Notes under the pieces: model-generated
What the model was told of the DNA's origin: nothing
Database searches by the model: none
Seen by the model: only the letters and a program-made list of their open reading frames with translations
Source: an uncultured Acidobacteriota bacterium
GTDB taxonomy: Bacteria > Acidobacteriota > Vicinamibacteria > Vicinamibacterales > CAVVIG01
Direction: 5' to 3'
Length of the DNA stretch: 64,000 nt
NCBI GenBank assembly: GCA_963750035.1
Contig: CAVVPE010000021.1
Location: 10,795 to 74,794 of the forward strand
Program-made: the position numbers and the translations under genes
Shown here: positions 41,235 to 64,000 of the stretch, in pieces
Numbering within the stretch: the stretch's first letter is position 1
Layout: each line of letters starts with the position of its first letter

Positions 41235-41325
41235 CATAGCCAGGGTCCCGCTTTTCCTGACTTTCGATCCAGCGAATCCCGTGCCAGCGGCCGAATGACT
41301 GCCGTAGTGGAGCGGGTCTGCTGAG

Positions 41326-44865: not shown

Positions 44866-44925
44866 GTCGAACGTGCCAGTGAAGGTCAAGACACGCACGG
44901 AAACGCGAAAACACGAAACCGAAAA

Positions 44926-45150: not shown

Positions 45151-45165
45151 TTTTCACGCACAGGC

Positions 45166-48999: not shown

Positions 49000-50248
49000 A
49001 TGCCGCACGCATTGGTGACGGCGTTGATCGATCTCACGATGCTGTCGACGCCGAGCCGGCAGAGAGGCATCGGCCGATACGCGGCAGACCTCGCCTGCGC
49101 ACTGGACGACACCAGCGTCGACGCCGCCCGCGCCCCCGACGGCGGACCTGAGAGGTCCGCCCTACGAGGCTGGCCGGATGTCCAGGTTCGTGCCATCGAG
49201 CGGTTCGACTGGATCGGTCCAGCGACGATTACCGGCCCGCGCAGCGCTGTGCGCCGGATTGCGGAGGATGCCCGCCGCTTTTCACACGCGCAGTGGGCCT
49301 ACCGCGTGCGCCTGCGGCTCGCGTCCATCGTCCGCAGGAGCCGCGCCGACGTCTTGCACTAACACCTATCTCGACGCGACGCCGCTCGGACCGCTGGGGT
49401 GCCCGCGCGTCGTGACCTGTCACGATCTGATTGCGATGAAAGCGCCCGACCATTACGGCGGCTGGCGGGACGGGTGGCGCTGGGGGCGCCGGCGTCTCGA
49501 CGCGAGGCGTTATCACTCTGCCGATCACATCATCGCGGTCAGCGCCGCGACCGCGTCCGATCTCGTCGCGCTCCTCCGCATCCCGGCTCGCAAGATCACG
49601 GTCGTCCACCACGGCGTCGACACGGTTCGCTTCTCCGCCGCGCCGGCCGGCGACGACGAAGACCGTGCGGCGACGGCACGGGTTCGGGGACCGCAGGTAT
49701 CTGCTGTTCGTCGGCGCCGCAGACTGGCGCAAGAACGCCGAGGGGATGCTGCGCGCGCTCGCGATCGTTCGCCGGCGTCCGGGCACCTCGGACATCGTGC
49801 TCGCATGGGCGGGGAGGATCGACTCGCAGGATCTCGCCGCCGTTCGTGCGCACGCGCGGGCGGCCGCGGTGGCTGACGCGGTCATGATGCTCGGCTACGT
49901 GCCGGATGGCCATCTGGCGGCCCTGATGCGCGGAGCGCTCGCGCTGCTGTTCGTGTCGCGCATCGAGGGTTTCGGGTATCCGCTCGTCGAGGCGATGGCG
50001 TGCGGCTGTCCGGTGATTGGCAGCAACCGGCCGGCGATTGTCGAGATGGCCGGCAATGCCGCCTCGCTGGTCGATCCCGAGCGTCCGGAAGCGATCGCCG
50101 AGGCGATTGGGGCGCTCGCCGGCGACGTCCCTCAACGGCGCCTGCTGTCCGAGCGCGGCGTCGCGCGGAGTCAACACTTCAGCCTTGCGCAGGATGGCTC
50201 AACAGACGGCGGACGTGTACCGGCAGATTGCCGCGGGCCCGTCGCTGA
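49000..50248 (+). CDS. GT4-family glycosyltransferase, at least 3 frame switches
   Basis: ATG 49000: MPHALVTALIDLTMLSTPSRQRGIGRYAADLACAL (ORF 48871..), VVTCHDLIAMKAPDHY...ADHIIAVSAATASDLVALLRIPARKITVVHHGVD (ORF 49178..), YLLFVGAADWRKNAEGMLRAL...LLFVSRIEGFGYPLVEAMACGCPVIGS (ORF 49665..), and the tail MAQQTADVYRQIAAGP (ORF 50017..). Confidence 0.75.
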
Positions 50249-50249
50249 C

Positions 50250-51187
50250 GTGCGGCTCTCCATCGTCATCGTCAACTGGAATTCGCGCGACGACCTGCGG
50301 GCGTGCCTCGAGTCGCTGGCCGCGCAGACGTATCGCAACATCGAGGTCCTTGTCGTCGACAACGGGTCGACGGACGGCTCGCCAGAGATGGTCGGAACTG
50401 ACTTTCCGGCCTGCCGGCTCCTTGCGCAGTCCGGCAACGTCGGCTTCGCCGAAGGCTGCAACCGCGGCATCGAGGCCTCGACCGGCGAGTGGGTCGCGAC
50501 GCTGAACAACGACTGCGTCAGCGAACCGGGCTGGGCGCAAGCGCTCGTCGACGCGGCGGAGGGCGTGCCCGCATCGTGCGGCATGCTGCAGTCGACGATG
50601 GTCTTCCTCGACCGGCCGGGAACGATCAACTCCACTGGCATCGAACTGACGGCGCTCGGCGGCGGGCGCGATCGCCATCGCGATCGGACCTGGCCCAACG
50701 ACGAATCGCGGCGGCAGTCCGCGATCTTCTGCCCCACTGCCGGCGCGGCGGCCTATCGCCGGGCGATGCTGGACGCCGTCCGCCTTTCGACGGGCTATTT
50801 CGATCGCACCCACTTCATGTACTTCGAGGACATCGATCTCGGCTGGCGCGCGCGGCTTGCAGGCTGGGACGCGTTATTCGTTCCCGACTCGATGGTGCGC
50901 CACAAGTGGCACGGCAGCACCGACCGTCACGGGGCTGGCGTGGCTCGCCGTCCTGTCCGGCATCAACCGGGTGCGCACCCAAATCAAGAACGCGTCGCCG
51001 TCCCTCATCGCGCGCACGAGCCCGGTCACGATGGTCGAAGACGCTCGAGATCGCCCGGCACGCGGGCATCGACGGTCTGCGGCAGCTGAAAGCGGCCGTT
51101 CAAGAAAGCCTGGCGCTGCGTAAGGAAGTGGCGAAAATAGCGCGCGTCAGCCGGCGCGCGGTCGAGCGCACATGGACGACGTGGTAG
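50250..51187 (+). CDS. GT2-family glycosyltransferase, C-terminal frame switches
   Basis: GTG 50250: VRLSIVIVNWNSRDDLRACLESLAAQTYRNIEVLVVDNGSTDGS...NVGFAEGCNRGIEASTGEWVATLNNDCV...FMYFEDIDLGWRARLAGW. The tail is in ORFs 50857..51123 and 50489..51187. Confidence 0.75.
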
Positions 51188-51264: not shown

Positions 51265-53625
51265 TCAGGAACCGTCCTGGGGCGTAAAAGGTCGTGAAAC
51301 CGGTTGGCCGGGCTCGAGTGTTACTTCTTCCTCCAGATGACCGACGGTGAGCCCAGTCCCCTCGCGAAGGAGGTAAGTCACCAGACCCTTCCTCCCCTCG
51401 ATGTCCACCGTCAAGAGCTGTCCCCGGATGGTGAGATGGAAGCGGAGGCCGTCAACCCGGCGCCCAAGGCGAGGATGGAACGTGATTCGGCCGTTGTAGT
51501 CGCGCAGGCCGGCGACGCCGTAGATGGCCGCCATCCACGTCCCACCCATGGACGCAATGTGGCAGCCCTGCTCGACGTTGGCGTGGACATCCGCCAGGTC
51601 CATCCATAACGCATACCTGAGGTAATCGATCGCCTTCTCCCGGTAACCGAGCTCCATCGCCAGGATGCTCTGAATAGACACCGAAAGCGATGAGTCGCCG
51701 GTGGTCAAGGGATCGTAGTAGTCAAAATTCCGGCGTTTCTGTTCGAGCGAGAATTCGTTCCCTAGCAGGAACATCGCCAGGACGATGTCAACCTGCTTAA
51801 TGACGTTATGGCGGTAGATGACCAGCGGATGGAAATGCAGCAGCAGCGGGTAACTCTCTGGAGAGGTGTTCGCGAAGTCCCACGGCTCCCTGTTCAGGAA
51901 ATCGTCATCCTGGAGATGGATTCCCGCCGTCTCGTCGTACAGGACGTACATGCGGTCGGCGGCGGTCTGCCAATCGGTGACTTCTGACTCGCTGAGCGAG
52001 GTCGCATGGGCCAACTCGTCGAACCGCTCCGGCTTGGTCACGCGGATTCCCTCCAGCGTCTTTGCGGCCGCCCGGAGGTTGGCCCTCGCCATCAGGTTGG
52101 TAAACGCGTTGTTGTTGACAACGGTGTTGTACTCATCCGGCCCAGTGACGCCGTTGATACAGAACCGTCCGTTGTTGCGGCTCGAGTAGAAGCCCAGGCT
52201 TCGCCACATCCGCGCGGTCTCGATCAGCATTTCCGCGCCTTCTCGATACAGGAACTCTGTGTCGCCCGTGACGTCCACATACTTCATCAGGGCATAGGCA
52301 ATGTCCGCGTTGATGTGGTACTGGGCCGTCCCCGCCGCGTAGTTGGCCGAGGCTTCGTCCCCGTTAATGGTCCGCCAGGGGAAGAGGGCTCCCTGCTGGT
52401 TGACGTCACGTGCGCGTCTGCGAGCGGCGTCCAGCATGCGATACCGGAACCGCAGCAGGTTCCGCGCGACTTGCGGGCTGGTGTAAATCAGGAACGGAAG
52501 AACGTAGATCTCAGTGTCCCAGAAATAGTGGCCCTCGTATCCGTGCCCGGTCAGGCCTTTGGCTGGTACGCCCATTCCATCTGCGCGTGCGCTGGCCTGG
52601 CAAATGTGGAAAAGGTTGAAGCGCGTGACCTGCTGTAGCTCGACATCCCCCCGCACTTCAACGTCTGCCCGATCCCAGAACCTGCCCAGGTACACCTGCT
52701 GTCCGTCGGCGAGCCCGTCGAATCTCACGCTGCCTGCCCGATCGAGTGCCCTCTCGGCGCGCTCCGCGAGCTCTTCGGCGGGGTCGTGCGATGAAGTGTG
52801 GTAGGTCAGGAGCTTTGTCAGACGCACCGTGTGACCGGCGCGACCGTGGACGGAGATGACCACCCGGCCTCGTTCGTCCGATGACAAGTTTTTCAGGTCG
52901 TACGAGCCGTCCGTCTCGATCTGATGGTCCATTCCGCAGGCCAGCGTCATTCTGCTGGTCCGCGTCATCGCCATCAGAATCGCCATCCCGCCGGAAGCCC
53001 GCGAGCCCTGCGGAAGCAGGACTCGCCCCGCAAAGGCACGGCTTCCCCGTGGGTCACCCTCGAGCGGGCGTGTCTCTTCTTCGTACCGGAGCTCTGACGA
53101 AATCACGATGGGCGCCGCGGCGTTGAGCAGCGTGACCTCGTACGAGACGGCGGCGACGTGCCTGTGCTCGAAGGAAACGAGCCGTCGCGAGCGAACTCGA
53201 ATCCGCTTGCCCGAGCCCGTTTCCCAGGTCACGTCGCGTTCGAGGAGGCCGGTCCGCATGTCGAGGGCACGCTCGTAGTCGACCAGCGTGGCGCGAGCGA
53301 GATCGAACGGTTCGTCGTCCACGTAGAGCCGAATCAGTGTGGCGTCCGGTGCGTTGACGATGGTCTGTCCGCTGCTCGCGTACCCATAGGCGGGCTCGGG
53401 ATAGACGATCGGCCACGTTTCATGGAACGCGTTGAGCAGCGTTCCTTTCTGAAAAACGGGTGTCCCTTCGTCGAACATACCGCGGATGCCGAGGTAGCCG
53501 TTGGCGAGCGCAAACAGCGTCTCCATTTGCGCCATCCGAGGAGGATGGTATTTCTTCTCCACAAGCCGCCACGGGTGGTGCGGATAGATGAAGGTGGGGA
53601 AGGTCTGGATGTCGCGCCGGAGCAT
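51265..53625 (-). CDS. glycoside hydrolase family 65 disaccharide phosphorylase (trehalose/maltose/kojibiose-type)
   Basis: Intact 786-aa ORF: ETLFALANGYLGIRGMFDEG, KGLTGHGYEGHYFWDTEIYVLPF, GCHIASMGGTWMA. Confidence 0.92.
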   Translation of the reverse strand: MLRRDIQTFPTFIYPHHPWRLVEKKYHPPRMAQMETLFALANGYLGIRGMFDEGTPVFQKGTLLNAFHETWPIVYPEPAYGYASSGQTIVNAPDATLIRLYVDDEPFDLARATLVDYERALDMRTGLLERDVTWETGSGKRIRVRSRRLVSFEHRHVAAVSYEVTLLNAAAPIVISSELRYEEETRPLEGDPRGSRAFAGRVLLPQGSRASGGMAILMAMTRTSRMTLACGMDHQIETDGSYDLKNLSSDERGRVVISVHGRAGHTVRLTKLLTYHTSSHDPAEELAERAERALDRAGSVRFDGLADGQQVYLGRFWDRADVEVRGDVELQQVTRFNLFHICQASARADGMGVPAKGLTGHGYEGHYFWDTEIYVLPFLIYTSPQVARNLLRFRYRMLDAARRRARDVNQQGALFPWRTINGDEASANYAAGTAQYHINADIAYALMKYVDVTGDTEFLYREGAEMLIETARMWRSLGFYSSRNNGRFCINGVTGPDEYNTVVNNNAFTNLMARANLRAAAKTLEGIRVTKPERFDELAHATSLSESEVTDWQTAADRMYVLYDETAGIHLQDDDFLNREPWDFANTSPESYPLLLHFHPLVIYRHNVIKQVDIVLAMFLLGNEFSLEQKRRNFDYYDPLTTGDSSLSVSIQSILAMELGYREKAIDYLRYALWMDLADVHANVEQGCHIASMGGTWMAAIYGVAGLRDYNGRITFHPRLGRRVDGLRFHLTIRGQLLTVDIEGRKGLVTYLLREGTGLTVGHLEEEVTLEPGQPVSRPFTPQDGS

Positions 53626-53638
53626 GACCGTCAGCGTC

Positions 53639-54403
53639 TCAGGACCGTGGTGACAGCAATTCCTCGAGGTCTGCGACCACGAAGTCGGCTCCTTCGTGTC
53701 TCAACGCGTCGGCGTTGCCGGTTCGAGCGATTCCAATCACCAGTCCGAAGCCGCCCTTCTTCCCGGCTTGCACACCGGCAATGGCGTCCTCGACCACGAT
53801 GGCGCGCGCGGGCTCGACCCCGAGTTGTCGGGCGGCCGCCAGGAACATGTCCGGCTCCGGCTTCCCGGCAAGACCCAGATCTGAAGCGGTCCGACCGTCA
53901 ACACGGACATCGAAACGGGACTCGATCCGTGCCGCGGCGAGAATGGCGGCACAGTTTTCGCTCGAGGAAACCACCCCCATCTTGTATCCCTGCTTTCGCA
54001 GAAAGTCCACCGCCCTGACCGACCCCGGATATGCTTCGACGCCTTCCCTCGCCATGATCTCGTTGACCAACGCATTTTTGTGGTTGCCGAGTCCGCAGAC
54101 GGTTTCAGCGGTTGGCGGATCGGTCGGTGCTCCGTACGGCAGACCGATTTGTCGGGATGCCAGGAAGCTGCTGACCCCATCGAAGCGCGGCCTGCCGTCG
54201 ACGTATCGTCGGTAGTCTTCACCGCTGTCGAAGGGGATGAAATGTCGATCCTGCGCTCCGGTCTGGCGCTGCAGGAAGATGTCGAACATCTGCTTCCACG
54301 CGGCTGCATGGAGCGTGGCGGTCGCCGTCAACACACCGTCCAGGTCGAACAGAATCGCGTCGAAGCGTTCTCGTGTGATCTCGGGGAACGAAATCATGCA
54401 CAT
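53639..54403 (-). CDS. pgmB: beta-phosphoglucomutase-family HAD hydrolase
   Basis: Intact ORF: FDAILFDLDGVLTATATLHAAAW, SSSENCAAIL, GKPEPDMFLAAARQLGVEPARAIVVEDAIAGVQAG. It lies 13 nt upstream of the GH65 start. Confidence 0.9.
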   Translation of the reverse strand: MCMISFPEITRERFDAILFDLDGVLTATATLHAAAWKQMFDIFLQRQTGAQDRHFIPFDSGEDYRRYVDGRPRFDGVSSFLASRQIGLPYGAPTDPPTAETVCGLGNHKNALVNEIMAREGVEAYPGSVRAVDFLRKQGYKMGVVSSSENCAAILAAARIESRFDVRVDGRTASDLGLAGKPEPDMFLAAARQLGVEPARAIVVEDAIAGVQAGKKGGFGLVIGIARTGNADALRHEGADFVVADLEELLSPRS

Positions 54404-54549: not shown

Positions 54550-56052
54550 CTAGCCCGACTGCAGAATCGCGGTCCTTGAATCGGACGTCCGGCTAAAGCC
54601 GGACGCTGCGTCAGGCACGAGCGATCTCGCTTCCAGGAGCGCGCGGCGATCGACCAGCCAGACGACGGCTGCATAGACGCTCAGTGAAACAACCGCGGCC
54701 GCCGCGAACGAGAGTGGACCGTCCACTCTCGACGCAAGCACGAACCGTCCGGTGGCTGCGGTCAAGCAGGCGGCCGCCCATGGAACTCGGAGCCGCCTCC
54801 AGAACCGCGCCTCTGGCAGCATCCTCCGCAGCACCTCGGCGATCACGATGTTGCCAATGACGACGTGCGACGCGTATCCGATGGCGAAGCCGAGCGTGCC
54901 GCCGAGTGCCGTGCCGATTGGGACCGCGATCCAGGTAATGACCGTCCACAGCAGCGCCACGCGCGCGAACACACCTGGACGGCCGATCGCATCGAGCGCG
55001 GACGCGACCAGCGGCGACAGGAAGCCAATCGAAATCGCCACGGAAAAGACAACCAGCAGCGGGACCGCCGGTAACCACTGCTCCGAGAACACGTAACGCG
55101 TAAGTGGCTCGCCGAGGCCGATGAACAGCCCGACACAGCCGCAGGTGACGAACGCGCACAGGTGAATCGCGCGGCCGAGCGACTCGCCGACGAGCGCGCG
55201 GTCGTGCTGCAGCCGGGCGAACAGCGGAAAGCCGACGGTCCGCAGCGTGTCCACCATCTTCAGCGGAAAGTAAGCGGTCTGCCGCGCCCAGTTCAGGTAG
55301 CCGACCGCGGTGACGCCGAGCTCGCGTCCGCCCCAGAACGGCGTCACCGCGTCGTTGACGAGGCTGATGACGTTGCGCGACTGCTGCGCCAGGCCGAAGC
55401 GCATCAGCGGCCGGACCTCCGCCCAGGCGAACGTGGCCCGCGGGCGCCAGCCGGAAACGGCATAGGCGATCACGGTCACCAGGCTTGCGCGTCCGATCAC
55501 GGCCGCAGCCAGCGACCACACGCCCCAACCCAGGAGTGCGAGGACGACAGCCACGCCGTAGAAGGCCGCGCCGCCGGCGACGTCGATCAGCGAGAGTGCC
55601 CCGAAGCGCAACCGCCGCTCGAGCAGCAGCATTGGCGCGATGCGCAAGCTGACGAGCACGAAATCCACGGCCATGACCTGCATCAGCAGCGCCGAATCAG
55701 GCGGCAAATCGGGCCAGACGACCGGGATCGCTCCAGCCGCGGCGGCGACCGCCGCCATCAGGACAAAAGATGCCGCGAGCTGGAGATAGAAGACGCTGGA
55801 AAGCTGTCGATCCGTCGGCGGCGTCGCCTGTCGCACCAGCGCGCCGCCGACGCCCGTGTCCCCGAAGAACGCGACAATCGCGAGCACCGACTGGACGATG
55901 GCGAAGACGCCGAATTCGTGCGGCGTCAGCAGCCGCATCAGTGCGATGCTGCCCCCGAACACGACCACTTGCATGACGACCGTGCGCGACACCAGCGCGA
56001 GAATGCCCCGCGTCGCCAATCCGTTCAGAGTGGAGAGATCGATATCATTCAC
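54550..56052 (-). CDS. Wzx/MOP-type oligosaccharide flippase
   Basis: Intact 500-aa multi-TM ORF with GTG start (VSRTVVMQVVVFGGSIALMRLLTPHEFGVFAIVQSVLAIVAFFGDTGVGGALV...). The last ~20 codons run through a REP-like hairpin. A TGA in a neighbouring frame at 54613-54611 may be the true stop. Confidence 0.85.
   Translation of the reverse strand: MNDIDLSTLNGLATRGILALVSRTVVMQVVVFGGSIALMRLLTPHEFGVFAIVQSVLAIVAFFGDTGVGGALVRQATPPTDRQLSSVFYLQLAASFVLMAAVAAAAGAIPVVWPDLPPDSALLMQVMAVDFVLVSLRIAPMLLLERRLRFGALSLIDVAGGAAFYGVAVVLALLGWGVWSLAAAVIGRASLVTVIAYAVSGWRPRATFAWAEVRPLMRFGLAQQSRNVISLVNDAVTPFWGGRELGVTAVGYLNWARQTAYFPLKMVDTLRTVGFPLFARLQHDRALVGESLGRAIHLCAFVTCGCVGLFIGLGEPLTRYVFSEQWLPAVPLLVVFSVAISIGFLSPLVASALDAIGRPGVFARVALLWTVITWIAVPIGTALGGTLGFAIGYASHVVIGNIVIAEVLRRMLPEARFWRRLRVPWAAACLTAATGRFVLASRVDGPLSFAAAAVVSLSVYAAVVWLVDRRALLEARSLVPDAASGFSRTSDSRTAILQSG
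54587..54604. repeat. REP-like hairpin GTCCGGC-TAAA-GCCGGAC
   Basis: It has the same arms as the hairpin at 40059-40077 (GTCCGGC-TGAAC-GCCGGAC). Both are followed by GCT. Confidence 0.55.
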
Positions 56053-56073: not shown

Positions 56074-56138
56074 TGTCGTTCGACGTTCGTCGTTCGTCGG
56101 GATCTCGTCGAACGTCGAACGCCCGAACGACGAACGGC
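56074..56138. repeat. inverted arrays of CGTTCG(T/A) heptamers filling an 87-nt intergenic spacer
   Basis: TGTCGTTCGACGTTCGTCGTTCGTCGGG ATC TCGTCGAACGTCGAACGCCCGAACGACGAACGGC. Positions 56077-56089 pair perfectly with 56109-56121 (13 bp), and alternative slipped registers exist. Confidence 0.75.
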
Positions 56139-56139
56139 T

Positions 56140-56928
56140 CTATCTCAGTAATGCAACCAGCAGCACGTTTCCCACCGTGAGAAACGCGACGAGCGCGAGT
56201 GTGAGCGCGTCAGACCAGAACGCGGACACAGCGAGTGCCAGATACAGCACGGCGAGGTGCGAGCCGAGGCCGAGTGCCGTCCAAGTACGCATGCGCTCCG
56301 TTGTCAGCGCGGATGGCGCAAACCCCGGCAGCGCCTCAGCGACCGCGCGGAGAGTCCCAACGTACTGGCGAAAGAACCAGAGGAGAAACGACCCGGCAAT
56401 CTCAATCTGCGCCAATTCTTCCTGCGTGGGGAGCGGCCGCGCTCCGATGCGCGACAAGTAGGTCCGCTTCGCGAAGTCGAACAACGAGCACTGGAGACCG
56501 TAGCTGCCCATGGCGACCAGGCCGAGCCCCCACAACATTTCCTCCCCCGACTGCCGCACCAACGTGTAGGTGATGCCGCTGAGAACGGCGAGGTTGACGG
56601 CGAGGTCGGCAAGCCCGTCGAACATGTCGCCCGTGCGCGAGGCCGTGCCCCGAATACGCGCCAGCTGACCGTCGACGCAATCCAGGATCACCGCCGTAAA
56701 GAGGAGCGCCGCCGCCGCGAGCCGCAGCGCCGGAGACTCGACGGCGAAAAACACCAGGATGCCGGCGGCGACACCAGTTGCGCCCGCCAGAGCGGTCACC
56801 TGGTTGGGTGTGATGGAGGTTGCGGCCAGCGGCCGGACGAGGATCGCGGCCAGCGGGCGATGGAGGCGTCGGTCAATCCATTCTTCGGCAACACCGGAAG
56901 GGGCGACCACGGGCCCCGAGCGGCTCAT
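56140..56928 (-). CDS. CDP-alcohol phosphatidyltransferase-family membrane protein
   Basis: ORF 56140..57171 trimmed to ATG 56928, which overlaps the upstream stop (ATGA). Complete signature DCVDGQLARIRGTASRTGDMFDGLAD (D-x2-D-G-x2-A-R-x8-G-x3-D-x3-D). Multi-TM. Confidence 0.88.
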   Translation of the reverse strand: MSRSGPVVAPSGVAEEWIDRRLHRPLAAILVRPLAATSITPNQVTALAGATGVAAGILVFFAVESPALRLAAAALLFTAVILDCVDGQLARIRGTASRTGDMFDGLADLAVNLAVLSGITYTLVRQSGEEMLWGLGLVAMGSYGLQCSLFDFAKRTYLSRIGARPLPTQEELAQIEIAGSFLLWFFRQYVGTLRAVAEALPGFAPSALTTERMRTWTALGLGSHLAVLYLALAVSAFWSDALTLALVAFLTVGNVLLVALLR

Positions 56929-57980
56929 TGCGCCGGCGCAGGGTCGAGCCGGCGAATCGCGTCGAGGACGCGCGCGCACTGCGAGAGCGTGCCAACCGTC
57001 ACGCGAACGAAGCCGCCCAGCTGCGGCAGCTCGCTGCGATCCCTGACCAGAAGGCCTTCGCCGCGCATCCGCTCGCAGAAGCCGGGCGGATCGGCGAGGC
57101 GCAAGAGGATGAAGTTCACGGGACTGGGAACAACCGTGTGGCCGAGGGCGCGAAGCGCCTCGACGAGCCATGCGCGCGCCGCAGATACCTCTTCGACGTA
57201 GCGTTGCATGTACGGCAGATCGTCGAGGGCGGCCACCGCCGCCACCTGGGCGGCGGCATTGACGTCACGGCCGCTCCAGAAGCGGCGCAGGCGTGCGGCG
57301 AGCGCCTCAGTCGACACCGTGTACCCGCACCGAAGCCCGGCGAGGCCGAACGCTTTCGAAAACGAGCGCATGACCAGGAGGTTCTCGAAACGATCAATCA
57401 ACGGAACCGCGGTCACCCCTGCAAACTCGAAGTAGGTCTCGTCGACGATCAGCACGCCGCCGGCAAGCCGCGCCAGCAAGGCAGAGAGTTCGTCCAGCGA
57501 GAAGGTCCGCCCGGTGGGATTGTCCGGGTTCGACAAGTAGACGATTCGCGTGTCGGAGTCGATGGCCCTGAGGAGCAGCGCCACATCCGGCGTGAACGGG
57601 TCGGCGGCATGGACCAGCTCGACCGTCAGGCCGGCGGCTTCGGCTGATCGGCGGAACCGATCGTAGGTGGGCGCGGCGACACAGACTCGATCGCCCCGCG
57701 ACGCGAACGTCCGCACCGCGCACTCGATCGCGGCATCACAGCCGTTGAATGGAAGCACTTCCGCGTCGCTGCGCGAGGTGTACTCGGCGAGGCGCGTGCG
57801 GACTATCGACGCCTCACTGTCGGGATACCACGAGGCGCGGCCTTCTTCCAGGAACTCCCGAAGGCGAGCTGCCACGAGGGGCGTCGGCGCAATCGTCGAC
57901 TCGTTGGCGTCGAGCTTCAGCACGGCAGCGCCCGGCGCGGCAGGAGTCGCCGGCCGCGATCCAGTGGCGCTGGTCAGCAC
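56925..57980 (-). CDS. class I/II PLP-dependent aminotransferase-fold enzyme (HisC/CobD-like)
   Basis: Intact ORF: LKLDANESTIAPTP, IVYLSNPDNPTG, MRSFSKAFGLAGLRCGY (PLP lysine). Start is probably GTG 57980; the longer track ORF would cross the divergent GT4 start. Confidence 0.85.
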   Translation of the reverse strand: MLTSATGSRPATPAAPGAAVLKLDANESTIAPTPLVAARLREFLEEGRASWYPDSEASIVRTRLAEYTSRSDAEVLPFNGCDAAIECAVRTFASRGDRVCVAAPTYDRFRRSAEAAGLTVELVHAADPFTPDVALLLRAIDSDTRIVYLSNPDNPTGRTFSLDELSALLARLAGGVLIVDETYFEFAGVTAVPLIDRFENLLVMRSFSKAFGLAGLRCGYTVSTEALAARLRRFWSGRDVNAAAQVAAVAALDDLPYMQRYVEEVSAARAWLVEALRALGHTVVPSPVNFILLRLADPPGFCERMRGEGLLVRDRSELPQLGGFVRVTVGTLSQCARVLDAIRRLDPAPAQ

Positions 57981-57998
57981 GAAGCAGACTCTAGCACA

Positions 57999-59112
57999 AT
58001 GCTTTCGATGCCGAGGATCGGCCTCGATGCGCGAATGATCGGTCCCACGCCGACGGGTCTCGGCACATACGCGCGCGGCCTCGTCCGCGCGCTCACGACG
58101 ATCGATCACGCAAACACGTACGTCGTCATCCGCGGACTACGCGCGGGTGGACCCATCGTGTCAGGACCGAATGTCGAGGACGCGATCCTTCCGGGCGAGC
58201 TCGACACCCCGCGGAATCTCCTGCACGGCGCCGCGATTTCGCGCCTGGGCCTCGACCTCTATCACAGCCTGCATCACTTCCTCCCACTCGGCCTGCGGGT
58301 ACCGCGCGTGGTGCTGACGCTTCACGATCTCATCTGGCTCGAGCACGCACACCTCATCATCGATGGCCGGTTCGGCGCCATTCATCGGGCGGCCACCCGC
58401 GTCTTCGCACGCGTCACGATGCGCCTTGCCGTTCGCCGGGCGGATCGCGTCATCTCCGTCTCGGGCCACTCGGCGCAGCGGGCCCTGGCCTATTACCAGC
58501 TCAATCCGCGGCGCCTGACCGTCGTGCACCACGGTCTCGACCACCAGGCGTTCGCCTTTCAGTTTCCGTCGGCGAGGAGCGATCGATACTTCATCGCGGT
58601 CGGCAACACACGTCCGTACAAGAACATCGCGACGGCGATCAAGGCCTTTGCGATGTGCGCGCAAGCGGATGCCGACGTCCGTCTCGTGATCGCCGGCCGC
58701 GGTGATGCCATCGCGACGCTTCGGCCGCTGGCCGCCCGCCTGGGCGTCGCGGATCGCGTCCGGTTCGCTGGCCCGCTGGCCCAGGATGAGCTGCTCGCGC
58801 TGCTGCACGGGGCGACCGCGCTCGTCTTCCCGTCACTGATCGAGGGATTCGGACTGCCGGTGCTGGAAGCGATGGCCGCCGGCTGCCCCGTGATTGGATC
58901 GCGAATCCCGACGGTGCAGGAGATTGCCGACGACGCCGCGCTCTTCGCGGAGCCGTCGAGTCCGGATGAGTTTGCCGCCGCGATGAGCCGGCTGCTGGTA
59001 GACGAAGGCACTGCGCAGCGACCTGGTCATGCGCGGGTGCCAGCGCGCGTCGCGGTTCTCCTGGGAGCGCTGCGCCGCTGAAACGCTCGCGGTCTACCAG
59101 GAATTGCTGTGA
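57999..59112 (+). CDS. GT4-family glycosyltransferase, C-terminal frameshift near 59000
   Basis: MLSMPRIGLDARMIGPTPTGLGTYARGL, LTLHDLIWLEH, ALVFPSLIEGFGLPVLEAMAAGCPVIGS. The tail ALRSDLVMRGCQRASRFSWERCAAETLAVYQELL is in the neighbouring frame and ends with TGA 59110-59112. Confidence 0.85.
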
Positions 59113-59128
59113 TAGTATCGCCGCCTCA

Positions 59129-59815
59129 ATGCGGCCGCTCGACGCGATCCTCTTCGATCTCGGCGGTACGCTCGACGGCCGTCACGGATGGCGCGACCGG
59201 TTTCATCGCCTCCTCCCCGGCGCCGGCATCGCCTGCTCGCGAGACCAGCGGGCGGCGGCCTTCGACTACGCGGAATCCCGATCACACGCCGAACCGGGGA
59301 TGGCAACCTCCGAATTGCGCCACATGGTGACGTGCCACGTCGGCTGGCAGCTCGAGTTCCTCGGCCGCCGCCCAGCCGGCGCCGTTGCGCAGATCGTCAA
59401 TTCGTTCATCGGCGACATCTATCAGGCAGCGGCGGTCAACCGGCTGGTGCTCGCCGAACTGGCCCGTTGCGGATTCAAGCTCGGCGTCGTCTCGAACGGC
59501 TGCGGCAACACCGCTGGTCTCTGCGAAGAGTACGGATACGCGAACACGCTGGCCGTCATGGTCGATTCACGCGAGTTCGGCGCGGCCAAACCCGACCCGT
59601 CGATCTTCCGCCATGCGCTGTCCCTCATCGGCAGCCTGCCGGAGCGGACGGCATTCGTCGGCGACTCGCTCGATCGGGATATCGATCCGGCAAAGTCGTT
59701 GGGCATGCACACGTTCTGGATCGCCGGCCGTGACGCGCGGCTTGCGCGGCGGGCTGACGCAATCCTCGACAGCGTTGCCGAGCTTCCCGCCGCGCTGGAT
59801 CGATGGTCCGCCTGA
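59129..59815 (+). CDS. HAD-superfamily hydrolase (phosphatase-like)
   Basis: Intact ORF: LDAILFDLGGTLDG, LGVVSNGCGN, AAKPDPSIFRHAL, AFVGDSLDRDIDPAKSLGMHTFWI. Confidence 0.85.
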   Translation: MRPLDAILFDLGGTLDGRHGWRDRFHRLLPGAGIACSRDQRAAAFDYAESRSHAEPGMATSELRHMVTCHVGWQLEFLGRRPAGAVAQIVNSFIGDIYQAAAVNRLVLAELARCGFKLGVVSNGCGNTAGLCEEYGYANTLAVMVDSREFGAAKPDPSIFRHALSLIGSLPERTAFVGDSLDRDIDPAKSLGMHTFWIAGRDARLARRADAILDSVAELPAALDRWSA

Positions 59816-60534
59816 TGCGCGCCGGAATTTTCGCCGCCGGATTCGGTGCGCGGCTGCGTCCGGATGCCGACCCCACCGGAACCCCCAAGGCACTGACGCG
59901 CGTGGCCGGACGTCCTCTGATCGACTGGGTCCTGTCGGATCTCGAGCGGGCCGCCGTCGAGCAGGTCGTCGTGATCGTCAACGAAGGTTCGACATCGATA
60001 CGGGATCACGTGGAGAAGAGCGGCAGGGCCAGCGTCACCTGGCTGGTCGAGACGACCGCGTCGTCGATGCACAGTTTTCTCCGTGTGCTGGAGGAGCTTG
60101 CCCGCGACGGAGACGACGGGCCGTTTCTCATCACGGCCGTCGACACGATCGCGCCAGCCGGGACGTTTCGACAATTCGCCGAGATTGCGGCCGCGGCGCC
60201 ATCGGCTGACATCGTCTTCGGCCTGACGACGTTCGTAGACGACGAGAATCCGTTGCGAATTGATCTGGCCGACCATTCGACCGCTGTGGCTGAGGTCACC
60301 TCCGTCGGTGACGGTCCGTACGCAACCGCCGGCTACTTTCTGGTCAGGCCCAGTGTGCTTCGCGAAGCCGGCGTGGCGCGCGCCAGCAGCTTCGGCGCGC
60401 TGCGTGTCTACCTGCGCCACCTCTTTGACCGCGGATACCGCATGTCAGGGGTCAGGATGGCGGATTCGATCGACGTCGACCGTCCGTCGGACGTCGCGAC
60501 GGCCGAGCGACTGCTCCGAGCGTCACTCTCATGA
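59815..60534 (+). CDS. sugar/alcohol-phosphate nucleotidyltransferase (NTP_transferase fold)
   Basis: ATG 59815 shares one base with the HAD stop (TGATG). MRAGIFAAGFGARLRP...PKALTRVAGRPLIDWVL...VVVIVNEG. Intact. Confidence 0.8.
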   Translation: MRAGIFAAGFGARLRPDADPTGTPKALTRVAGRPLIDWVLSDLERAAVEQVVVIVNEGSTSIRDHVEKSGRASVTWLVETTASSMHSFLRVLEELARDGDDGPFLITAVDTIAPAGTFRQFAEIAAAAPSADIVFGLTTFVDDENPLRIDLADHSTAVAEVTSVGDGPYATAGYFLVRPSVLREAGVARASSFGALRVYLRHLFDRGYRMSGVRMADSIDVDRPSDVATAERLLRASLS

Positions 60535-61385
60535 GCGAGTTTCTCGGCATCTACCGCGAATCGATCTGCTCGCCGGGGCGCCATCGCGAGAACGATACGG
60601 TCATCCTCGAGCTCGTCGCCGCCGAGCTCCAGCGCCGCGGGCACGTCGTCCATCTCGCCTCGCCGGACGAGGTCGGGCGGTTCGCCATCTCGAGGTTCAC
60701 GATTTTTTCGATGTCGCGCTCGCCGCGCGTCCTCAAGCTGCTGGCGCGATGGGCTGCCGAGGGACGGACGGTCGTCAACCGGCCCGATCGCGTCCTCGGC
60801 ACGGCACGCAGCCAGTTGGTCGATCGCGCCCTCGGCAGTGTGTCGTTGCCCTCGTGCCATGTCGTTCCCACGGCCCGCGCCGCGAGATCGAGCGTCCAGG
60901 CCGTCGACGGCGATTGGTGGGTCAAGGGCGGCGATCTGTACGCGAGCCGCCGCGAAGACGTGCAGCGGTTGGGCACGATGGAAGAGCTCGGTCGAGTCTT
61001 GAACGACTTCGAGCGACGCGGCATCCGGACCGCGGTGCTGCAGGAACACGTCCCGGGCCGCGAAATCAAGTTCTACGCCGTCCGCGGCGACTTCTTTTAC
61101 TGGTTGGAAACAGACAATCCCGCGGTACATGGAACCCTCGGCGAGCCATTTCAGGCGTGCGCGCAGGAGTCGGGAGCGGCGCTATCGCTCGACATCTTCG
61201 GCGGCGATCTCGTGATCGGCGAAGACGGCCGGACGACGCTGATCGATCTCAACGACTGGCCGTCATTTGCCCCGTGTCGCGACGCGGCAGCGCGGGCGAT
61301 CGCGCGGCACCTCGAGCTCCGATCCTTCGACGCCTACGCGGCTTCCTCCCCAGCCGGATCGGTGACGCCGTCCGCGTCTGCCTGA
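60531..61385 (+). CDS. ATP-grasp-fold protein
   Basis: ATG 60531 overlaps the upstream stop (ATGA). WWVKGGDLYASRREDVQRL, VLQEHVPGREIKFYAVRGDFFYW, LDIFGGDLVIGEDGRTTLIDLNDWPSF (the ID-x-N-x-x-P signature of ATP-grasp enzymes). Intact. Confidence 0.65.
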   Translation: MSEFLGIYRESICSPGRHRENDTVILELVAAELQRRGHVVHLASPDEVGRFAISRFTIFSMSRSPRVLKLLARWAAEGRTVVNRPDRVLGTARSQLVDRALGSVSLPSCHVVPTARAARSSVQAVDGDWWVKGGDLYASRREDVQRLGTMEELGRVLNDFERRGIRTAVLQEHVPGREIKFYAVRGDFFYWLETDNPAVHGTLGEPFQACAQESGAALSLDIFGGDLVIGEDGRTTLIDLNDWPSFAPCRDAAARAIARHLELRSFDAYAASSPAGSVTPSASA

Positions 61386-62548
61386 TACTCGGGGCCGTTC
61401 CACGCGATCCACTGGACTGTCGACACGACGGCCGAAGAGACCGTGATCATCGCGTGCCACAGGAAGGCCACCACCGGGACACCGGCGAGCGCCGTCACGA
61501 CGTAAAGCAGCGAATAGAAGTCGCGTCGCGTCACGTCACCCAGGAGGCGCTGCCTCGTCTCGGTCTCGGTGCCGCCTCCGATCCACCATCTCAAACTCGC
61601 GACGCTCCCCCGGCCGCCCGCCTTGACGATGAGGCCGGCGTACAGACCGGCAACGTGGATTAACTGCGCGACCAGCGCGATCCAGGCGACTGGCCACGCC
61701 CAGGGATGGGACGTCGACAATCCGATACCCACGGCCACGAGGAACGCGATGTTCAAGACATCGTCCACCACCTGGTCGAGCCACTCTCCGGCCTTCGACC
61801 GGAGGTACTTGAGCCGGGCGATCTCGCCGTCGCAGCCATCGAGCACGTTCTGCGCCTCGAACAACATCGCACCGACGACGAGGTTCCAGTACCCGCCGTC
61901 CAGGGCCACGACGACGCCAGCCGCGCCAACCGCCGCGGCGACGAGCGTCATCTGATTGGGAGTGACGGCGGTTGACAGCACCCGCTTCGTCACGAGCCTC
62001 GACAGCCGCCGGTGCAGGTGCCGCGAGACGAGGCCATCGGCCTGTTTGTCGAGCGACCGCAGCAGCAGGGCCGTCGCGCGACGGCGCTCGTCGTCGCTCC
62101 CGGCGATGACGACGAAGTCCGCGTCGGCCATCCACTGCACGTCCGGAACGGCATCCGAGATCGCCAGGGCCCGGATGACGTCGGAAGCAACCGCATCACC
62201 GCACAGGTAGACAGCGGCCGCTTCCGAACCGACGGCGACACTGCGATCTGGAGCGACCGCCTGGCGCGCGAGGCGGCGGACGACGTTCGGATGCCAGATG
62301 CATCCGGCGCGGGCCACGAGGATGGACGATTCGATCTCGCGCGGCGATCTCAGCTCGGAGACGTCGAGCCGCACGCGAGGGTCCGATCGGACGGCATCAA
62401 CGGACACCCCGACGAGATTGACGGACCGAATGCCGGCATCCTGCAGCGAAAGCACCTGGCGGAGGATGTTCGGCAGTCCGCCGACGACATTGAAGCTGAC
62501 GTCGGCAATTCCGGGCGGCGGCCCGACCAGGCAGGCACGCCGTGTCAC
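61334..62548 (-). CDS. CDP-alcohol phosphotransferase with ~200-aa N-terminal soluble domain (degenerate nucleotidyltransferase-like); IPCT/DIPPS-like architecture
   Basis: C-terminal part of ORF 61334..63292, read from in-frame GTG 62548. The soluble part is NVVGGLPNILRQVLSLQDAGIRSVNLVGV...ADFVVIAGSDDERR. Then ADGLVSRHLHRRLSRLVT...TPNQMTLV and the complete signature DGCDGEIARLKYLRSKAGEWLDQVVDD, followed by TM helices. Confidence 0.8.
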   Translation of the reverse strand: MTRRACLVGPPPGIADVSFNVVGGLPNILRQVLSLQDAGIRSVNLVGVSVDAVRSDPRVRLDVSELRSPREIESSILVARAGCIWHPNVVRRLARQAVAPDRSVAVGSEAAAVYLCGDAVASDVIRALAISDAVPDVQWMADADFVVIAGSDDERRRATALLLRSLDKQADGLVSRHLHRRLSRLVTKRVLSTAVTPNQMTLVAAAVGAAGVVVALDGGYWNLVVGAMLFEAQNVLDGCDGEIARLKYLRSKAGEWLDQVVDDVLNIAFLVAVGIGLSTSHPWAWPVAWIALVAQLIHVAGLYAGLIVKAGGRGSVASLRWWIGGGTETETRQRLLGDVTRRDFYSLLYVVTALAGVPVVAFLWHAMITVSSAVVSTVQWIAWNGPEYQADADGVTDPAGEEAA

Positions 62549-63292
62549 GTGCCGAACCGTTCGCGGGCAGCGGCAAGATCGCCCGCGTCGTCGATTTCCA
62601 TCCAGCTGAAGGCCGGCACGGGCGAGATGCCGAATCGGTACGCCGCCGTCGATCATCTGCTGGAACGCATCCTCGTAATAGGCCGTCGCGGCGCGGGTGC
62701 TCGCCAACGACTCGAGCGCCGTCCACATCAGCGGTGCGGCTGCCCTGCCGATCTTCTGGACACCGATTGATTCGCCCGCGCTCTCGGCCGCGTCGAGCGC
62801 CTTGGAAATTCTCTGCACAGAACGATCTGCGCGCAGCTGCACCTTCATCGCCTCGGCGTCCCATCGAATATTCGTGTCCACGGCTAACGCGCAGTCCGCC
62901 GGATGGGCAATCAAGGCAGGCAGCGGATCGGCCAAAAAGATCACATCAGCATCACACACGACGATCCCGTCAGTGCCCACCGCCTCGCGGGCCATCGCCA
63001 GGCTCGCCGCGTTGTTGGTGGTCGCGTACCGCGTGTTCCGAACGAGCGCGATGCCGAGCGAGCCTCGACGCGCGCGCACGCGTGCCTCGACCAACTCGAA
63101 ATGATGTCCGCCGACGATGACCGCACGGTCCAGCCCGGCCGCTTCAATGCTGTCGAGAAGCCGATCGATCAGCGGACGTCCCGCGACGTCGATCAGACAT
63201 TTCGGCGCAGCATCCGTCAGCGGACGGAGACGGCTGCCCGATCCGGCGGCGAGCACCACGGCAATCACGGCGCCCAGTGTAAGATAGAACAT
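62545..63292 (-). CDS. LicC/IPCT-like nucleotidyltransferase, frameshift near 62635
   Basis: MFYLTLGAVIAVVLAAGSGSRLRPLTDAAPKCLIDVAGRPLIDRLL...VVCDADVIF. The canonical C-terminus ISPVPAFSWMEIDDAGDLAAARERFGT is in the neighbouring frame. It ends with TGA 62547-62545, overlapping GTG 62548 of the next gene (GTGA). Confidence 0.8.
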
Positions 63293-63367: not shown

Positions 63368-64000
63368 TTGACCCGCCGCGTCGCCGTCCTCTCCCTACTC
63401 ATCACACTGACGCTTCCGGTGCTTGCCGGAGCGGCGCAGTCCGTCTCGACCGGCGCGATCGAAGGATCGGTGTCGACGCCGAAGCCGGCAGTGCGGCTCG
63501 CGGGAGCGCTGCTCGCCGTGACCGATCGGCGAGGCGCGGAGGTCGCGCGGACGGCGTCGGACGGCGAGGGTCGATTCACGATCGGCGATCTTCCCGTCGG
63601 CCAGTATCGCGTCGTCGTCTCGCTCGAGGGATTCCAGGCGGCAGACATGCCGGTCGTCGTGGCGGCCGGCAAGACGACCATTCTCGACTTCGAGTTGCCG
63701 ATCAGCGTGCTCGCCGAGCGGGTGGAGGTCGTCGCGCCGGCCTTGCCAGGAGCGCCCGACACGTTCGGCGCCGCGGAGACCCTCGACGTCACCGCCCAGG
63801 AGGCGTATTCGACCGGCGGCGGCTTTCAGGCGGCGCTGCGGCTGCTGGCCAGTGTCATTCAGTCGCCGGGCGGGCTCAGCATCAAGGGCGGCCGGCCGAC
63901 GCAGGCGACGACCCAACTTGGCGCCGGCACGATGATGGATCCGTCGACGGGGCTCGTTCCGTTGACGCTGCCGCCCGATGCGATCGATTCGGTCGAGGTG
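63368..64000 (+). CDS. TonB-dependent receptor, N-terminal part (runs off the window end)
   Basis: My translation from TTG 63368, preceded by GGAGGAG: TRRVAVLSLLITLTLPVLAGAAQS (signal), GAIEGSVS...GRFTIGDLPVGQYRVVVSLEGF (carboxypeptidase-regulatory-like), then GGFQAALRLLASVIQSPGGLSIKGGRP (plug). It is open to position 64000 and is not in the ORF track. Confidence 0.75.
   Translation, partial: MTRRVAVLSLLITLTLPVLAGAAQSVSTGAIEGSVSTPKPAVRLAGALLAVTDRRGAEVARTASDGEGRFTIGDLPVGQYRVVVSLEGFQAADMPVVVAAGKTTILDFELPISVLAERVEVVAPALPGAPDTFGAAETLDVTAQEAYSTGGGFQAALRLLASVIQSPGGLSIKGGRPTQATTQLGAGTMMDPSTGLVPLTLPPDAIDSVEV

Follow-up and report, generated by a model that had tools for sequence, protein, structure and literature searches.

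A two-module CDP-alcohol locus of an uncultured Acidobacteriota bacterium: a probable enlarged form of a lipid head-group module found in many phyla and akin to the CDP-inositol route proposed for inositol sphingolipids

When a bacterial locus carries two sets of genes that activate an alcohol phosphate as its cytidine diphosphate (CDP) derivative and then transfer it, which alcohol is being handled, and onto what is it loaded? The question is posed by a 64,000-nucleotide stretch of contig CAVVPE010000021.1, from an uncultured Acidobacteriota bacterium (the whole stretch, G+C ~67%, is termed the window here). Two genes for membrane CDP-alcohol phosphotransferases lie in it on either side of an oppositely oriented chain of genes for a GT4 glycosyltransferase, a HAD-type phosphatase, a nucleotidyltransferase and an ATP-grasp protein. 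The initial annotation, made from the sequence alone, saw here two parallel modules for CDP-activated (amino)alcohol phosphates, with a lipid, a glycan or a polyol as potential acceptor, and all the genes that it named were recovered by open reading frame (ORF) listing and Pfam search. The two nucleotidyltransferase/transferase modules, the HAD, ATP-grasp and HisC-fold proteins and the conserved adjacency all stand; among the points that have changed, the acceptor options are narrowed, most likely to a ceramide-linked lipid. The locus belongs, in an enlarged Acidobacteriota form, to a lipid head-group module that is widespread, experimentally uncharacterised and akin to the CDP-inositol route proposed for inositol sphingolipids. 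On balance we lean towards a pathway of the CDP-alcohol (Kennedy/IPCT-DIPPS) type that makes a membrane-lipid head group and is tied to ceramide synthesis, as the Acidobacteriota version of a multi-phylum module. A membrane lipid with a link to ceramide synthesis, and not a glycan or solute, is the most likely acceptor, and the product is probably an inositol or amino-alcohol phospho-sphingolipid.

Both transferases carry the complete signature D-x2-D-G-x2-A-R-x8-G-x3-D-x3-D, with an exact fit (DCVDGQLARIRGTASRTGDMFDGLAD and DGCDGEIARLKYLRSKAGEWLDQVVDD), both score above the PF01066 cut-off of 22 bits, and hydropathy predicts 4–5 transmembrane segments in each. The top NCBIfam matches of transferase 1 are archaetidylinositol-phosphate and phosphatidylinositol-phosphate synthases (47 and 46 bits, sub-threshold), and it falls in one sequence cluster (cluster 4) with the transferases of Bacteroidales, Runella and Verrucomicrobia modules at 30–34% identity. 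Transferase 2, which has a 404-aa relative that is 94% identical (P0001), matches AF2299 (9.3e-22) and IPCT-DIPPS (2.2e-17) among PDB sequences. Its AlphaFold 2 model (pLDDT 90.7), compared full length with Foldseek, finds AF2299 (4o6m, E=2.6e-14, TM-scores 0.63/0.75) and 4mnd (0.65/0.64); the N-terminal 165 residues have a nucleotidyltransferase fold, with RmlA-type matches, that is without the GxGxRL motif. Nucleotidyltransferase A has PDB matches to 4y7t and LicC 1jyk and belongs to cluster 3, being 29–49% identical, over its full length, to the module nucleotidyltransferases of other phyla. The orthologue of nucleotidyltransferase B in L001 (L numbers designate homologous loci, P numbers homologous proteins) matches LicC 1jyk and, full length, 4jd0, named IMPCT, the inositol-1-phosphate cytidylyltransferase of T. 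maritima (PMC12275187).

The short overlaps pointed out initially are in the sequence: ATGA at 56925–56928, joining the start of transferase 1 to the stop of the HisC-like gene, and those of 1–4 nt in the HAD, nucleotidyltransferase A and ATP-grasp chain (TGATG, 1 nt, at 59813–59817 and ATGA at 60531–60534). The bases of a GTGA at 62545–62548 are present too, but they couple nucleotidyltransferase B to transferase 2 only once a 1-nt indel at 62637–62638 is corrected.

The possibility had been raised that this adjacency would be found in no relative; however, it is conserved at 53–97% identity, since L002 and L003 keep the whole arrangement. Gene order is retained in L001 (94%), L002 (64%, on a 39-kb contig), L003 (53%, on a 1.67-Mb contig) and L010 (97% DNA identity; CAVREM010000079.1, an uncultured Acidobacteriota metagenome-assembled genome (MAG) from Microflora Danica). 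The order is outer-membrane beta-barrel protein, nucleotidyltransferase B and transferase 2; then, on the opposite strand, ATP-grasp, nucleotidyltransferase A, HAD and GT4; then HisC-like enzyme, transferase 1 and a Wzx flippase. The flippase noted beside transferase 1 was found there and keeps its neighbour in L002 and L003, both of which have GT2 and GT4 genes close by. In L010 a PAP2_3 protein, a bCerS-like GNAT protein and a CerR-like epimerase lie 4–7 kb past the point at which the window ends, about 5 kb from the conserved gene set, and L003 has a serine palmitoyltransferase (Spt) that passes its NCBIfam cut-off (522 bits against 500).

The linkage to lipid genes is broader than these relatives. 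Flanking ORFs around the ATP-grasp homologue were taken from 80 species-representative genomes and clustered (Louvain); the taxa include Acidobacteriota, Verrucomicrobiota (Chthoniobacterales), Elusimicrobiota, Ignavibacteria/Melioribacter, Bacteroidales, Runella, Gemmatimonadales and Binatia, and the window proteins share clusters with the neighbours so collected. HAD adjoins the ATP-grasp gene in 72 of the 80 loci, the tightest gene pair, followed as neighbours by Aminotran_3 (63), nucleotidyltransferase A type (60), transferase 1 type (57), a GFO/IolG-like dehydrogenase (55), Spt-like and bCerS-like GNAT proteins (41 each), transferase 2 type (40), nucleotidyltransferase B type (33), the flippase-like LPG_synthase_TM (24), Wzx (21) and myo-inositol-phosphate synthase (MIPS; 12). 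At least one Spt-like, bCerS-like or CerR-like gene is present in 47 of the 80, and a flippase-like gene (Wzx or LPG_synthase_TM) in 45. Linkage of the conserved, coupled gene set to these three kinds of ceramide gene is established, as are the families and folds of its enzymes.

In cultured Runella limosa (DSM 17973) the genes for Spt (719 bits against an NCBIfam cut-off of 640), GNAT, epimerase, CarbopepD_reg/DUF5686, nucleotidyltransferase, ATP-grasp, CDP-alcohol transferase, LPG_synthase_TM, HAD and DUF4833 are co-directional. Bacteroidales and Ignavibacteria have nucleotidyltransferase, ATP-grasp, CDP-alcohol transferase, LPG_synthase_TM, HAD and MIPS, and in these other phyla linkage to inositol-phosphate synthase and to lipid-transport genes is also established. 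In Ignavibacteria/Melioribacter an MlaE permease, an ABC ATPase and MlaD stand between the nucleotidyltransferase and ATP-grasp genes (L074, 7480–9999; also L059, L076, L081, L087 and L088), which points to dedicated trafficking of a lipid product. GT-C glycosyltransferase genes occur beside Wzx in clusters of Verrucomicrobia and other types (L006/L013, 1072–2220, PIG-V-like Mannosyl_trans2/PMT_2; L091, 4872–6440, PMT_2/PMT), and hint that a flipped glycolipid is lengthened in the periplasm, in the manner of the synthesis of glycosylphosphatidylinositol or of phosphatidylinositol mannosides (PIMs) and lipoarabinomannan. Several component activities are naturally fused: nucleotidyltransferase, CDP-alcohol transferase and HAD in P0065, and nucleotidyltransferase, CDP-alcohol transferase and an LPG_synthase_TM/HpnL-like, flippase-like membrane domain in P0067. 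Together with P0073, P0075 and P0078 these fusions are useful Rosetta-stone links between the component activities.

The product of the gene on which the census was centred has no Pfam or NCBIfam family and no single-sequence PDB match, and the Pfam Ins134_P3_kin model does not match it either, though it has 1273 database relatives. Its description as an ATP-grasp protein was thus without support from sequence models, and is borne out by structure prediction: the AlphaFold model (built from 37 relatives, pLDDT 89.8) has a three-domain ATP-grasp fold with 542 Foldseek matches in the PDB at E<=0.001, of which RimK, Ddl, LysX and PsnB are at the top (TM-scores 0.62–0.72). A profile of the family finds ITPK4 (7pup, E=1e-5) and ITPK1 (0.013–0.018), inositol-phosphate kinases (ITPK), over the C-terminal 50–70 residues only. 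The signature so aligned is ...FGGD(I/V)...(L/I)ID(L/I)NxxP(S/G)(F/Y), and D-L-N stands where the aligned ligase PsnB has E-L-N. Judging by its sequence motifs, it may act as a kinase and not as a ligase. [Its gene and that of transferase 2 are convergent, and their 3′ ends overlap by 52 nt (61334–61385); overlaps of 49–52 nt are called in L001, L002 and L003.] In L005/L011, whose ATP-grasp proteins are 87% identical to that of the window, the HAD/ATP-grasp pair stands alone (9318–10852) beside DinB, HAD, beta-lactamase, PAP2_3 and acyl-ACP-type genes, so the larger cluster is variable among near relatives.

The pyridoxal phosphate (PLP) enzyme had been placed in the HisC/CobD fold with a CobD-type role in mind. 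The fold is confirmed by Aminotran_1_2, but the enzyme is nearer to HisC transaminases: TIGR01141 (hisC) gives 257.2 bits, short of its cut-off of 276.55, and TIGR01140 (CobD) 187.3 against 290.55, while PDB chains of HisC match at 2e-39 and those of CobD at 6e-20 to 7e-17. All residues that align to E. coli HisC Y55, D85, Y110, N157, D184, Y187, K214, R222, R322 and R335 are kept; in HisC these include the catalytic lysine, residues that bind PLP and, for the phosphate of the substrate, a pair of binding arginines. A CobD-type decarboxylase is, on these scores and residues, less likely than a HisC-type transaminase. (A nucleotidyltransferase fused to a CobD-like domain, P0075, is 30% identical over 211 residues only.) No his operon surrounds the gene; in L002, where the orthologue is 68% identical over its full length, and in L003 and L091 it is coupled to a CDP-alcohol transferase gene, and in L091 the pair is adjoined by MlaC, MMPL and OEP. 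Overlap of the two genes is kept in relatives down to 47% identity, and a relative at 41% is in an unrelated core-gene context. Two relatives, at 55% and 47%, are both within lipid-type clusters, one with acyl-ACP-type genes, DAGK_cat, PlsC, Wzx, GT4, nucleotidyltransferase, ATP-grasp, Aminotran_3 and GFO, the other flanked by two CDP-alcohol transferases and then OEP, MlaC and MMPL. In the window the HisC-like and GT4 genes are divergent (57980–58008) with start codons only ~18–27 bp apart (26 bp in L002), so any promoters must fall within neighbouring coding regions.

Coordinates of the features discussed (positions in the window; aa, amino acids)
Feature	Coordinates	Strand	Description
GT4 glycosyltransferase "b"	49012..50186	+	orthologue of L002 19120-20310; three frames in window
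GT2 glycosyltransferase	50250..51184	+	Pfam Glycos_transf_2; frameshifts ~50936 and ~51040
Wzx/MOP-family flippase	54550..56052	-	Polysacc_synt_3 PF13440 176.9 bits; ~10 transmembrane segments by hydropathy
Intergenic inverted repeat	56077..56136		nested CGTTCG(A/T)CG units; arms 13-19 nt, 84-100% complementary; between transferase 1 and Wzx
CDP-alcohol phosphotransferase 1	56140..56928	-	262 aa; PIPS/AIPS-like membrane enzyme; PF01066 51.9 bits
HisC-family PLP enzyme	56925..57980	-	351 aa from GTG 57980, ORF reaching 58109; SFSKAFGLAGLRCGY; Aminotran_1_2 181 bits
GT4 glycosyltransferase	57999..59109	+	Glycos_transf_1 118.8 bits; last ~33 residues in other frame, extra A near 59005
HAD-IA phosphatase-type hydrolase	59129..59815	+	228 aa; Pfam Hydrolase/HAD_2; cluster 1
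Nucleotidyltransferase A	59815..60534	+	LicC/IPCT-type, COG1213-like; NTP_transf_3 50.2 bits; AAGFGARLRP
ATP-grasp-fold protein	60531..61385	+	284 aa; no Pfam/NCBIfam family; C-terminal signature like inositol-phosphate kinases (ITPK)
CDP-alcohol phosphotransferase 2	61334..62548	-	404 aa; degenerate N-terminal nucleotidyltransferase-fold domain and membrane catalytic domain, AF2299/DIPPS-type; PF01066 40.2 bits
Nucleotidyltransferase B	62545..63292	-	LicC/IPCT-type; NTP_transf_3 57 bits; AAGSGSRLRPLT; frame broken at 62637-62638
Outer-membrane beta-barrel protein (start)	63368..64000	+	CarboxypepD_reg domain, Pfam 54 bits; extends past window

What, then, is the alcohol? That no inositol-phosphate synthase is encoded in the window, as initially stated, is borne out by tblastn, and none was found in L010 by the same means or in L002 and L003; MIPS is present only in the Bacteroidales and Ignavibacteria loci. 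However, the further statement that the alcohol cannot be named is now too cautious. Inositol is put forward as a named lead, because orthologous modules in other phyla adjoin MIPS and match a published putative inositol-lipid cluster, and for the present lineage it is a candidate. In the pathway so envisaged the ATP-grasp protein (possibly ITPK-like) and the HAD phosphatase would interconvert the free and phosphorylated alcohol, for which myo-inositol phosphate is the leading candidate, and the HisC-like transaminase would supply a phosphorylated amino-alcohol, a precedent being the formation of a serinol-phosphate-type product from a keto-alcohol phosphate. The two LicC/IPCT-type nucleotidyltransferases would use CTP to form the CDP-alcohols, from which the two membrane transferases would place phospho-alcohol on ceramide or diacylglycerol, or on the growing head group. 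Transferase 1 may have an alternative, PIPS-like chemistry in which CDP-lipid and alcohol phosphate are joined and the HAD enzyme then dephosphorylates. Sugars could be added by GT4 and GT2 (compare PimA on phosphatidylinositol), and Wzx would move the completed lipid across the inner membrane to its outer face.

A more specific proposal is tentative and, in our estimate, has the odds against it: that the locus makes a bacterial counterpart of the glycosyl-inositol-phosphoceramides of eukaryotes or the PIMs of mycobacteria. The product would be a Wzx-flipped outer-membrane lipid in which ceramide bears sugars and CDP-derived groups, one or two in number, of the phospho-(amino)cyclitol or amino-alcohol kind, and the ATP-grasp protein would be the missing bacterial kinase for inositol (cyclitol), through which free inositol enters CDP activation. 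Megson et al. 2015 reported that Tannerella forsythia is without MIPS, uses exogenous inositol only, and yielded no inositol-kinase candidate (PMC4587543). Were the ATP-grasp protein such a kinase, the inositol ceramides that this organism makes from exogenous inositol without MIPS (PMC4587543) would be explained. The locus of a Tannerella sp. MAG (L089, 8954–12265) has the ATP-grasp gene adjoining the transferase gene, preceded by a nitronate-monooxygenase-like gene, with no nucleotidyltransferase, HAD or MIPS gene nearby, and this minimal version could bear on the use of exogenous inositol by Tannerella.

Several observations weigh against the ceramide-linked head-group pathway. No enzyme of the window reaches a curated NCBIfam cut-off, and MIPS, Spt and ceramide genes are absent inside the window, their linkage being seen in relatives only; moreover 33 of the 80 census loci are without a sphingolipid gene within 10 kb. 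Missing from the L005/L011 locus are the two nucleotidyltransferases and the two transferases, together with GT4, Wzx and the HisC-like gene. Wzx, GT4 and GT2 belong to the classical repertoire of polysaccharide-unit genes, and the top Foldseek ranks of the ATP-grasp model are ligases, not kinases. In place of the Aminotran_3 and GFO/IolG-like dehydrogenase of most phyla there is here a HisC-like enzyme, and so the alcohol may not be plain inositol. Nucleotidyltransferase A is just 29–30% identical to the Bacteroidales enzyme, and for that reason its substrate specificity may differ. Finally, the Bacteroidetes pathway that the locus resembles is itself unconfirmed.

Some of these points are shared with a rival account, in which phospho-alcohol groups, or amino-alcohol groups in amide linkage, are added to a Wzx-dependent surface poly- or oligosaccharide unit. 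The steps would be those of the C. jejuni HS:2 capsule: an amino-alcohol phosphate is made, ligated to a uronic acid and dephosphorylated. We regard this as unlikely, though deserving of serious attention. The cluster has Wzx, two GT4 genes and one GT2; amide-forming ligases lead the Foldseek list for the ATP-grasp model; and the trio of HisC-fold PLP enzyme, ATP-grasp and HAD, the last two forming the tightest pair, mirrors Cj1437/Cj1436, Cj1438C and Cj1435 (PMC11800397). However, that pair is kept in Bacteroidales and Runella modules without the aminotransferase, and the module occurs in runs of Spt, bCerS and CerR genes and next to lipid transporters of the Mla and MMPL kinds. The known roles of CDP-alcohol phosphotransferases, in making lipids and solutes, also count against a glycan. 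A polysaccharide locus would be expected to be in the company of Wzy, a chain-length regulator, an exporter and an initiating phosphoglycosyltransferase, none of which is nearby: no Wzy, initiating phosphoglycosyltransferase or Wza/Wzc is among the ORFs annotated from 44.6 to 64 kb, and the upstream ORFs at 46292–48543, considered for Wzy-like or phosphoglycosyltransferase genes, are not membrane proteins. Nor was a gene for uronic acid formation (UDP-glucose dehydrogenase) seen.

Far less probable is a soluble polyol-phosphodiester compatible solute, such as di-myo-inositol phosphate or glycerophosphoinositol, made by IPCT/DIPPS logic with a final HAD dephosphorylation. Transferase 2 is structurally closest to AF2299 and IPCT-DIPPS, a HAD phosphatase is at hand and a 652-aa ORF scores 136.1 bits on the IPCT/DIPPS equivalog model NF041135, yet that is far under the NCBIfam cut-off of 580, no MIPS is in the neighbourhood in this lineage, and the context is one of flippase, glycosyltransferase, ceramide and lipid-transporter genes. 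The sampled relatives, all from MAGs (several of Microflora Danica, permafrost-palsa or Antarctic origin), include none identified as a thermophile. Chance neighbourhood of ordinary housekeeping pgsA/pssA and hisC copies is the least credible of the explanations. It draws on JGI names of relatives ("phosphatidylglycerophosphate synthase", "histidinol-phosphate aminotransferase") and on the HisC-like enzyme, which keeps all its aligned active-site residues and scores just under the hisC cut-off; against it, the transferases give 27.1 bits with the pgsA model and 28.1 with pssA (NCBIfam cut-offs 109.1 and 107), the HisC-like subfamily and its overlap with a transferase gene persist to 47% identity in lipid, glycosyltransferase and Wzx clusters, the his operon is lacking and the locus is absent from the 87% relative. 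The possibility raised initially, that the orthologues are housekeeping genes, is therefore not borne out.

The 652-aa ORF (61334–63292, minus strand) raises a different issue. It spans both AAGSGSRLRPLT and the second transferase motif, the AAGSGSRLRPLT frame reading through GTGA without stopping, and might on its face be a genuine bifunctional nucleotidyltransferase/CDP-alcohol transferase of archaeal IPCT/DIPPS kind, fused through a real frameshift mutation. That the frame is open across the junction as given, and that natural fusions of these two activities exist (P0037–P0051), would suit such an origin. It is nevertheless very improbable, and was rejected on alignment to L001 and L010 and on several other frameshifts. 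Three-frame translation places the conserved C-terminus of nucleotidyltransferase B, ...FSWMEIDDAGDLAAARERFGT*, in the other frame, ending at GTGA, and a fusion would need 33 out-of-frame residues in its stead. The extra base responsible (62637–62638, minus strand GTA[C]CGA) is missing from L001 (94% identical) and L010 (97%). In L001 a separate 240-aa nucleotidyltransferase and a 404-aa transferase overlap by 4 nt, and L002 and L003 likewise have two genes with a 4-nt overlap. Since two close relatives are without the base and at least five further frameshifts are present in the window, the ORF is a probable assembly error: going by these alignments, the apparent fusion is most likely an assembly indel and not biology. 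A separate set in L010, with the window's own within 15 kb, also fits assembly indels better than mutations.

ORF boundaries in the window are not to be read literally, because it and L010 (96.9% DNA identity, 48 gap openings) both look indel-prone. At least six single-base frameshifts affect conserved genes in ~15 kb of the window: two each in GT4b and GT2, and one each in GT4 and nucleotidyltransferase B. Using L002 proteins, tblastn places all but the last at ~49365 and ~49666 in the second GT4 gene, at ~50936 and ~51040 in GT2, and at ~59005 in GT4. The L010 set differs, with two in the barrel protein gene, others in those for transferase 2 and HAD, and, past the window end, more in the beta-lactamase-like, second HAD, PAP2_3 and bCerS-like genes.

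Of the accessory genes, Wzx also matches the NCBIfam "MOP flippase family" (148.6 bits, sub-threshold). The inverted repeat between it and transferase 1 is length-polymorphic relative to L010, with many small indels, and could be a terminator or attenuator, or a small repeat element. For GT4 the tblastn pieces (58008–59006 and 59011–59109, with an indel relative to L010) put the real end at ~59109 and not 59081. The closest solved relatives of its L002 orthologue are MshA and PimA, both inositol-directed, a likeness that is weak evidence because only the C-terminal half aligns. The L002 protein gives three collinear pieces of GT4b, in frames 1, 2 and 3, and Glycos_transf_1 matches the 49665–51089 ORF; GT2 is 80% identical to its L002 counterpart by tblastn over three frames, with single-base insertions relative to L010. 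Genes for a GH65 glycoside phosphorylase (786 aa) and a beta-phosphoglucomutase-like HAD protein (51265–54403) separate Wzx from GT2/GT4, in L010 as well, and look like a 3.3-kb insertion, because in L002 GT2 directly follows Wzx. The orthologues of the barrel protein in L002 and L003 have 817–824 aa and weak TonB_dep_Rec_b-barrel and OMP_b-brl_4 matches. Upstream, at 41028–48543, are helicase-nuclease genes (a 1200-aa UvrD-helicase with PD-(D/E)XK, and a 322-aa PD-(D/E)XK protein). The last ORF there (47149–48543), by eye a helicase-nuclease subunit fragment, ends in apparently out-of-frame sequence that may be a further frameshift.

The chemistry and transport of bacterial sphingolipid head groups are largely unmapped, and the alternative inositol-lipid route of Bacteroidetes is unconfirmed (PMC9246714). 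The core trio of the route proposed by Heaver et al. belongs to a far more extensive module that is kept in many phyla. Its most constant member is a previously unremarked ATP-grasp gene, and it has two candidate flippase types; according to the Caulobacter group, no sphingolipid flippase is known (PMC11087976). In Runella, which is cultured, the module is linked directly in an operon to Spt, bCerS and CerR genes. Among its genes are testable candidates for three kinds of protein: an inositol kinase, CDP-alcohol:ceramide transferases and sphingolipid flippases. The locus also suggests that complex phospho-glyco-sphingolipids are made by abundant soil Acidobacteriota and Verrucomicrobiota. A literature search returned nothing on a bacterial CDP-alcohol phosphotransferase with ceramide phosphoethanolamine, and nothing relevant on Chthoniobacter sphingolipids.

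How does the locus compare with systems already described? In C. jejuni, Cj1435–Cj1438 are a PLP enzyme, ATP-grasp and HAD set acting on amino-alcohol phosphates for the HS:2 capsule (PMC11800397). Compared by described function, the likeness lies in a PLP enzyme that acts on a phosphorylated C3 unit (dihydroxyacetone phosphate to serinol phosphate; serine phosphate to ethanolamine phosphate) and in the ATP-grasp and HAD partners. The family assignment of Cj1436 and Cj1437 is presumed here. Unlike the window locus, the C. jejuni set has an ATP-grasp amidoligase that acts on capsule glucuronate, with no CDP-alcohol chemistry, whereas the present locus and its context lack a uronate pathway and are dominated by CDP-alcohol enzymes and ceramide genes. 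The mycobacterial route to phosphatidylinositol and PIMs (PgsA1, phosphatidylinositol-phosphate phosphatase, PimA) similarly combines a CDP-alcohol-family inositol-phosphate transferase, a phosphatase and a GT4 enzyme on the inositol head group. However, it is without nucleotidyltransferases or an ATP-grasp enzyme, and the score of transferase 1 with the phosphatidylinositol-phosphate synthase model is 46 bits against a cut-off of 170.

In Caulobacter crescentus, CpgD (a COG1213 cytidylyltransferase) and CpgA (with a PgsA domain), encoded near spt, bcerS and cerR, add phosphoglycerate to the ceramide head group, CDP-glycerate being the proposed donor (PMC12275187, PMC9393093). The locus shares with this set, at family level only, a COG1213-type cytidylyltransferase and a CDP-alcohol-family enzyme near the three ceramide genes. 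The Caulobacter set differs in using a ceramide kinase (LCB5 type) and CpgC, with phosphoglycerate as substrate, and is without ATP-grasp, HAD, HisC-like, GT4 or Wzx partners. With IPCT-DIPPS and AF2299 (PDB 4mnd, 4o6m) the shared logic is that CTP and an alcohol phosphate give a CDP-alcohol, from which a membrane enzyme transfers, with an optional phosphatase step; transferase 2 has the architecture and fold of AF2299, and the nucleotidyltransferase B orthologue aligns full length to T. maritima 4jd0. Unlike IPCT-DIPPS, the two activities are on separate genes in all close relatives, the N-terminal domain of transferase 2 is without GxGxRL, the equivalog score is low, and the context, with no MIPS nearby, is that of a lipid and not a solute. 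Rhodothermus, with an IPCT and a CDP-inositol-dependent ether-lipid synthase, follows a similar logic; that CDP-inositol donates a lipid head group there comes by way of a reference given in PMC4587543.

The nearest comparison is with the cluster of Heaver et al. 2022, in which a nucleotidyltransferase, a CDP-alcohol transferase and a HAD protein next to MIPS were proposed to give B. vulgatus and Prevotella another way of making inositol phosphoceramide (PMC9246714). The authors call it putative and unconfirmed, and the ATP-grasp gene is not mentioned (PMC9246714). The window locus differs in having Wzx and no adjacent MIPS or LPG_synthase_TM, and in its second nucleotidyltransferase/transferase module, HisC-like enzyme and GT4/GT2 genes; identities are ~26–35%. 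A CarboxypepD_reg-domain neighbour is common to both, though the barrel protein of the window has no BLASTP similarity to the Runella CarbopepD_reg/DUF5686 neighbour. Nucleotidyltransferase A, transferase 1, HAD and the ATP-grasp protein do share sequence clusters with their counterparts in Bacteroidales loci, BLASTP against L080/L079 giving 29–30%, 32% and 26–28% identity for Louvain clusters 3, 4 and 1 (E <=2e-13).

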